Source: an uncultured Eubacteriales bacterium (GTDB taxonomy: Bacteria; Acidobacteriota; Aminicenantia; Aminicenantales; CALLJL01). Taken from it: a DNA stretch of 64,000 nt. The notes under the pieces were generated by a model that was not told the origin of the DNA, did no database searches, and was given only the letters and a program-made list of their open reading frames with translations. The DNA lies in the NCBI GenBank assembly GCA_964627255.1, contig CAZVIN010000007.1, positions 3,051 to 67,050 on the forward strand. The letters run 5' to 3'. Made by a program: the position numbers and the translations under genes. Below are positions 44,358-44,529 of this stretch, one piece after another; position 1 is the stretch's first letter, and every line of letters starts with the position of its first letter.

Positions 44358-44529
44358 TGCTTCCCTTGGGGCTCCTTGATTATTATATCAGCATCTCAAT
44401 TTGATTGCCTACTTATCTATTTGTTTGCTAACTTATTACTTTTCTTACTTGCTTACCTGATTTCTTATTAAAATCCTTAGTAGCTTATCTATTCCCCTTT
44501 TTATATTTACGATGATATAGAGCGATCCA

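Follow-up and report, generated by a model that had tools for sequence, protein, structure and literature searches.

The window analysed here, a stretch of 64,000 nucleotides from the chromosome of an uncultured Candidatus Aminicenantes (Acidobacteriota) bacterium, contains two intergenic gaps in which tetranucleotide arrays lie beside G-poor sequence. Gap 1 (44121-44529, 409 nt) separates recN from a gene of the C_GCAxxG_C_C family, both on the minus strand; the latter gene is followed by miaB and then by an H+-pyrophosphatase (H+-PPase) gene. In the sense direction, the recN stop codon was found to be followed by the spacer under study (44529-44358, hereafter spacer 1), a compound array (44357-44237), a 116-nt leader and the ATG. 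Gap 2 (55898-56161) lies between a 939-aa OMP-like gene upstream and a 287-aa gene downstream. The genes downstream of both arrays are housekeeping or metabolic genes, and are atypical as contingency or phase-variable genes. The features of the two loci are collected in Table 1.

Table 1. Features of the two array loci and of their neighbouring genes (window coordinates)
Feature	Position	Strand	Description
miaB	42367-43686	minus-strand cluster	TIGR01574; start overlapped by the C_GCAxxG_C_C gene
C_GCAxxG_C_C family gene	43686-44120	minus	144 aa; Pfam PF09719, NCBIfam TIGR01909; first gene downstream of gap 1
Spurious 157-aa ORF	43998-44471	plus	Translates as ...INQSINQSIYQSIYLSIYLS...; runs through the array
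Proximal leader of the C_GCAxxG_C_C gene	44121-44236	minus	116 nt; Shine-Dalgarno-like GAGGAAG; G-poor on the plus strand
Main compound tetranucleotide array	44237-44357	minus	121 nt; TRF period 4, 30 copies, 94% matches
Promoter-like island	44382-44411	minus	TAGGCA, N18, then extended -10 TGATATAAT
Tetranucleotide array relic	44396-44457	minus	Core of the G-poor spacer; lag-4/8/12 match 0.485 vs 0.343 expected
recN-proximal spacer part	44458-44529	minus	Unique, non-coding; lag-4/8/12 z = 2.3 (weak); 74% identical to L089
recN	44530-46221	minus	563 aa; Pfam SMC_N and AAA_23; upstream neighbour of gap 1
287-aa gene	55034-55897	minus	Exported protein; no Pfam or NCBIfam match; an Fe-S oxidoreductase gene also lies downstream of array 2
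(GAAT)n array, (TTCA)9.8 on the plus strand	55886-55927 (TRF 55889-55927)	minus	9.8 perfect copies; abuts/overlaps the first ATG of the 287-aa gene
Cryptic tetranucleotide patchwork	55928-56029	minus	Only 3 G on the plus strand; lag-4/8/12 z = 8.0
Distal spacer 2	56030-56161	minus	lag-3/6/9 z = 4.6, lag-4 z = -0.1; candidate 23-codon ORF and 60 nt OMP-proximal

RecN of the window was at most 77% identical to that of GTDB species representatives, and the titles of almost all of these name Aminicenantes. Among ∼160 Aminicenantes loci with orthologues, the orders S8 peptidase-recN-GCAxxG-miaB and OMP-287aa-CCG were conserved. The 287-aa protein has more than 300 relatives, and those that are named come from Aminicenantes or Acidobacteriota. 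This family shows an invariant HDSxHDSD motif and a variable N-terminal signal/anchor region, and its C-terminal ...WGxAxPF ending resembles those of outer-membrane beta-barrel proteins.

Inspection of the base composition showed that spacer 1 (172 nt) contains 38 A, 36 C, 20 G and 78 T. Its G content was 11.6%, compared with 24.7% for the whole window, its GC content was 33% compared with 48%, and its GC skew was about -0.3. When the window was divided into non-overlapping segments of 170 nt (mean 42 G, sd 7.2), the segment of spacer 1, with 17 G at 44382, ranked fourth in G-poverty, at about -3.4 sd. The three segments poorer in G were found at locus 2 (4 G, 55879), in the array and proximal leader of gap 1 (7 G, 44148) and at 62158 (11 G). 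The first-pass annotation had described spacer 1 as strongly strand-asymmetric, with very few G, and as unlike its surroundings in composition. Both the asymmetry and the departure from the surroundings were borne out by these values, but 'very few' is an overstatement for 20 G in 172 nt; it suits locus 2 better, where the 264 nt of gap 2 hold 12 G. That the 157-aa ORF across the spacer is not coding was likewise supported, by its low-complexity translation and by its overlap with the Pfam-supported C_GCAxxG_C_C gene on the opposite strand. The other gaps that separate minus-strand genes of the window contained 13-26% G. G-poverty as a general trait of upstream regions was therefore rejected, and the depletion is specific to these gaps.

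Two further G-poor stretches, 62191-62340 and 34204-34380, showed no period of 4. The former is the third strongly G-poor plus-strand stretch of the window, with an 86-nt G-free run at 62244-62329. It lies upstream of an M24 peptidase gene (60652-62190, minus strand), which is missing at the corresponding place of the sister contig L177, and its A/T-rich, homopolymer-like sequence represents low complexity of another kind. At 62439-62466 the 13-nt sequence CAATAATAGGTGA is perfectly repeated in tandem (× 2.2); the site falls in the 1.4 kb that separate the M24 peptidase gene from a plus-strand ORF truncated by the end of the window. Elsewhere, a 499-nt gap between two minus-strand ORFs (13234-13732) gave no Rfam match at the gathering score.

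Spacer 1 retains a residual period of 4, with matches of 0.38-0.41 at lags 4, 8, 12 and 16, compared with ∼0.31 expected. The signal was strongest in the relic at its core, where the period-4 z value was 4.4 and none of 3000 shuffles (0/3000) reached the observed match. The sense strand of this relic reads GTAA GCAA GTAA GAAA ... CAAA CAAA TAGA TAAG TAGG, and a 20-nt tandem duplication was detected at 44396-44435 by TRF and by a repeat finder. No period-4 signal was obtained in the lag test for 44358-44395. Spacer 1 is a composite and not one unit: it is made up of the 3' flank of recN, a tetranucleotide array that has decayed, and a promoter-like island. In our judgement 44358-44529 is probably the upstream part of an expanded intergenic leader, with no element present in its own right. 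On the other side of spacer 1, the main array could be parsed on the sense strand into (CAGA)8, ∼12 TAGA units with one CAGA interruption, and ∼10 TTGA/GATT units. The proximal leader that follows has 10 G in 116 nt, is 75% identical to that of the sister lineage L089 described below and shows a period-4 z value of 3.0. The main array is located 116 nt upstream of the start codon, while array 2 is at 0 nt.

Within spacer 1, the arrangement TAGGCA-N18-TGATATAAT looks like an extended -10 promoter. In the scan, the island matched 10 of the 12 positions of a consensus that may not be that of Aminicenantes, and its second hexamer is preceded by TG. The same scan of shuffled sequence yielded as many sites (mean 1.8), so that a function of the island can only be inferred. 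Of all exact non-repeat matches to the sister lineage, the longest (GCTGATATAATAATCAA, 17 nt) also falls within the island, and by this comparison the island is the best-conserved piece of spacer 1.

Searches for other kinds of feature in the gaps gave no candidates. The Rfam search returned no match at the gathering score or at E ≤ 1, the search for tRNA and tmRNA found none, and no intrinsic terminator was detected within the gaps after recN or after the OMP-like gene. A structured cis-regulatory RNA was rejected, as the folds of the sense transcripts were no more stable than those of shuffles (z of +0.16 and -1.46). A G-quadruplex reading of GGTTGGTTGGTGGGTGGGTGG was also rejected: motifs with two tetrads occur widely in the window (58 and 36 loose hits) but not at all in its main array.

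At the second locus, the (GAAT)n array is followed by a patchwork in which the runs (GGTG)3, (GGTT)2, (TGAA)2, (TGGA)2, (GTAG)2 and others were recognized, and in which the lag-4/8/12 match was 0.523 compared with 0.312 expected. In the sister lineage, the homologue of this patchwork is the pre-array region, which is followed by ∼200 nt of intact arrays. G-poverty is equally strong in the distal half of spacer 2 (56030-56161), yet this half has period 3, and no period 4 was found in it. The explanation of G-poverty by array relics therefore falls short of accounting for all of the asymmetry. The 60 nt at the OMP-proximal end of spacer 2 were ∼89% identical to the sister sequence by hand count on the alignment. 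The (GAAT)n array of the window grew out of ATGAATGA at the start of the 287-aa gene; at this position the sister has ATGAATGA alone (two units). With every extra GAAT unit comes one more upstream AUG, the start of a three-codon ORF (ATG AAT GAA TGA), and these added AUGs might affect translation.

Distal spacer 2 also contains the candidate 23-codon ORF at 56030-56101 (minus strand), which would encode the hydrophobic peptide MVALMGVMVALAKVEVVVVIALS. In the sister (L177:5872-5943, MVAVIWVMVALVKVEVLVAIALI) its reading frame is preserved and ends at the same stop. The substitutions between the two fell 3:3:7 at codon positions 1, 2 and 3, a hand count from two sequences of 79% nucleotide identity. 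It could be the gene of a small membrane protein, or it could be a decayed 9/21-nt repeat. The gene called nearby in the sister, at L177:5948-6025, was rejected as the conserved small ORF, since it is a different, lysine-rich 25-aa ORF within a sister-specific insertion.

The closest comparison was provided by the sister lineage L089 (contig Ga0078972_1000148), whose RecN is 94% identical at the amino acid level and whose genes are ∼91% identical at the nucleotide level. The first-pass annotation had proposed a search of relatives for the same architecture, and it was found that L089 carries compound arrays at both orthologous gaps. Its recN-GCAxxG gap is 592 nt long, compared with 409 nt in the window. 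Its main array is longer and runs CAGA > TAGA > TAGT > TTGT > TGGT. An intact (AAGT)7 of L089 aligns to GTAA GCAA GTAA G of the window relic, and a further 116 nt of intact arrays (GGAA, GGAT, GGTT, GCAG, GTAG) are inserted at ∼44445. The presence of intact sister arrays at the aligned position indicated that the core of the window spacer is their decayed or less expanded counterpart. The non-array parts of the spacer were 74-79% identical to the sister, while third codon positions were 81% (recN) and 79% (GCAxxG) identical. As the identity of the spacer is near the third-codon-position level, its divergence outside the island is about neutral.

The recN-GCAxxG gap was measurable in 99 other Aminicenantes loci and had a length of 0-196 nt, mostly less than 25 nt; the enlarged gap is specific to the lineage of the window and the sister. 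No tetranucleotide arrays were found in ∼2.3 Mb of relatives' loci outside the window and the sister lineages. The gaps of the closest relatives, of which three were inspected by eye, are short and A/T- or purine-rich. Leaders poor in sense-strand C also occur in several relatives, and the sense-strand C content was 8-19% in the tabulated relatives' gaps (recN identity of at least 72%). In a distant Aminicenantes MAG (L061, DAOVDU010000005.1, GC 39%), several tandem repeats with 7-8-nt units (GGTTTAA, TAATCGGT, TTAACAGA and GTTAATCT) were observed in gaps of the recN-miaB-HPPase neighbourhood, at 11690-11714, 13093-13200 and 15288-15326, one of them where the contig ends. This MAG provides an independent instance of arrays with short units in the same gene cluster.

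The order of an array followed by a G-poor spacer does recur at 55889-56161 with the same polarity, as (TTCA)9.8 and gap 2, and the first-pass annotation had taken this recurrence to suggest a common origin or function. On that view, both spacers would derive, as copies or as relics, from one discrete element: a mobile element, for instance, a MITE or a regulatory module that had been duplicated. The shared polarity is only weak evidence for such an element, because it results from both genes lying on the minus strand. A further hint came from the sister, whose two loci share the exact 52-mer TAGA(CAGA)4(TAGA)8 and the irregular 21-mer TGGTTGGTTGGTTAGTTGGAT. This sharing suggests an exchange between arrays, or else mis-assembly through repeats, and it is limited to array units. 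Local alignment of the two spacers of the window gave a score of 20, compared with 19.6 ± 2.9 for shuffles, with no shared exact match of at least 12 nt, and there were no inverted repeats. A mobile element or MITE was rejected on these grounds, the proposal of a common origin of the spacers did not hold, and descent of both from one discrete element is very unlikely. It was also observed that the two array loci of the sister, ∼11 kb apart (L089:11690-12284 and L089:60-300), have the same order of unit blocks.

Array length was found to vary between assemblies. The (GAAT)n array has 11.8 units in L003/L175, from another sample, and 9.8 in the window, with identical flanks. Between the sister assemblies L089 and L169, the difference amounts to an entire (TGAT)7 block as well as changes in other unit counts. 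Unit counts of the main array also differ in L001 and L086, with CAGA at ∼2 times the window count. Array lengths above ∼120 nt are unreliable in short-read assemblies; the counts at locus 1 are insecure because arrays that long exceed short reads, and the GAAT polymorphism alone is secure. By tract length and by copy-number polymorphism, the gaps fit the class of SSR loci. Two array loci were present in ∼82 kb of genome (the window and 18 kb of extra flank), with no further arrays in the additional 18 kb.

The low complexity might have been produced by an assembly or sequencing artefact, or by a chimeric join with eukaryotic GATA/GACA satellite DNA. Short-read assemblers perform poorly at arrays of 120-300 nt, and contigs from several samples end within arrays, those of L001, L002 and L087 in the main array. 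In L086 (ENA ERZ27245602, k141_62280), the recN-side spacer and (CAGA)15(TAGA)11 at 4364-4480 run into unrelated sequence, where a 197-aa ORF and an AbiEii toxin gene (AbiE locus) follow in place of the C_GCAxxG_C_C gene. This junction is either a chimeric join via a (TAGA)n array of the community or a real structural variant. Nevertheless, the spacers and both array-flank junctions were identical in independent JGI, ENA and Logan sample assemblies: spacer 1 in L086 and L087, and spacer 2 in L003/L175 and L088. Gap 2 is fully spanned by L003/L175, and gap 1 by the window and L089, with bacterial genes on either side. Correction of sequencing errors had been named as something that might restore a typical base composition; the identity of the spacers across independent assemblies indicated that sequencing error is not the cause, and an artefact as the source of the low complexity is extremely improbable.

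The origin of spacer 1 that we regard as probable is slippage expansion of a leader that was already poor in sense-strand C, followed by decay of the arrays. The ancestor would have had a short gap between the recN and C_GCAxxG_C_C-miaB genes. In one narrow Aminicenantes lineage, replication slippage would then have extended four-base seeds in this gap into long arrays, and point mutations within the arrays would have produced further units, whose own expansion led to compound arrays such as CAGA > TAGA > TTGA. Interrupted arrays would cease to slip and decay to cryptically simple sequence. The G-poverty of the plus strand would follow from the descent of almost the whole sequence from a few seeds that had no or one sense-strand C; since these arrays were seeded from C-poor leaders, their composition would be inherited. 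Locus 2 would have arisen through the same process and not from a shared element, and what the two loci share is this process of slippage-driven expansion and decay. If transcription started at the island, the main array would lie in the 5' untranslated region, and its variable length would tune downstream expression by degrees, not act as an on/off switch. By analogy with uspA2 (discussed below), such tuning of expression by array length is plausible.

The sense-strand C content was 4-10% in every version of both gaps, and we counted only ∼3 unit types with a C among the 21 of the unit parse. The scarcity of C among the units may exceed what descent from seeds provides, and may reflect a mutational or selective bias. 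It might also be supposed that the arrays and their C-poor flanks are kept by selection as a functional leader, of which the spacer is a constrained part. Such a leader might act as a 5' UTR free of C and of structure, as a platform for protein binding or as a true contingency locus. The persistence of arrays at both orthologous gaps in two lineages ∼20% apart at third codon positions would agree with this, as would the low level of sense-strand C that persists despite complete unit turnover at locus 2, and the conservation of the promoter-like island. But the spacer outside the island diverges about neutrally (74-79% identity), no significant RNA structure or Rfam match was obtained, just two loci occur in ∼82 kb, and the downstream genes are atypical for phase variation. 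Selection for a functional leader, in whichever of these forms, was therefore considered unlikely as the explanation as a whole.

It is less likely still that the scarcity of sense-strand C is actively maintained, through strand-specific mutation at transcribed leaders or through selection for C-free unstructured leaders. The basis for considering it is that C scarcity outlasts complete unit turnover at two loci and in two lineages, and that it holds in non-repeat parts as well. Under active maintenance, leader length would be a heritable and rapidly adjustable setting, and block exchange between loci would spread such settings; the whole would amount to a contingency-like tuning of housekeeping and metabolic operons in an uncultured, free-living bacterium.

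If expansion from a C-poor leader and subsequent decay are the correct explanation, what seemed an odd, strand-asymmetric 'element' is the scaffold and debris left behind by microsatellite expansion. The two gaps would then offer a clear bacterial case in which tetranucleotide arrays can be followed from birth through compounding to decay by comparison of two sister lineages. The arrays break metagenome contigs and have given one apparent misjoin, which matters for binning and annotation of this lineage. As such arrays are best known in host-adapted pathogens, their presence in environmental Aminicenantes was mildly unexpected, and a literature search turned up no relevant account of repeats in Aminicenantes. 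If array length does tune the downstream operons, rheostat-type control by repeats reaches beyond pathogens.

The locus belongs to the known bacterial intergenic microsatellite loci and points to no new mechanism. The history proposed for it is familiar from eukaryotic cryptically simple sequence and compound microsatellites, in which related units differ by single substitutions, and in which arrays, once interrupted, decay to DNA of low complexity with a remaining trace of the period and a skewed base composition. In contrast to the eukaryotic cases, the arrays described here occupy bacterial gaps of 400-600 nt in a compact, gene-dense genome.

Among bacterial systems, uspA2 of Moraxella catarrhalis is one with a similar arrangement. 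According to the work of Attia and Hansen (2006) as cited in PMC7302503 and PMC4679880, (AGAT)n upstream of the gene or in its 5' UTR modulates expression by copy number. Both systems have a tetranucleotide repeat with a common unit (AGAT = TAGA), at 132 bp upstream of the ORF in uspA2 as given in those citing accounts and at 116 bp here, and in both the copy number varies between strains or samples. A change of array length cannot shift the reading frame in either system, so that any effect would be graded. The present array differs from that of uspA2 in being compound: three unit types occur in the window, and as many as 16 blocks in the sister. Moreover, decayed arrays flank it, the downstream genes are housekeeping genes, and the host is an uncultured free-living lineage.

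The tetranucleotide contingency loci of Haemophilus influenzae and Neisseria, among them Neisseria nadA with (TAAA)n upstream of the promoter (PMC2791445), are alike in having slippage-prone four-base tracts of hypervariable copy number beside genes. Those loci have one pure unit, usually within an ORF or between promoter elements, and they control surface or modification genes of host-adapted pathogens, whereas the arrays here have many units, lie outside ORFs and retain decayed neighbours. The sole overlap with an ORF concerns the first codons of the 287-aa gene, where the frame is unaffected. In marine Beggiatoaceae, an intergenic TAACTGA heptamer occurs at 169 sites per genome and is shared across phyla (PMC4679880). 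There one heptamer is conserved, whereas here two loci were found in ∼82 kb, the units change freely, and the arrays are confined to two sister lineages. The two cases resemble each other in that short tandem repeats lie between a promoter, putative here, and a start codon in free-living uncultured bacteria, where their role is possibly post-transcriptional.
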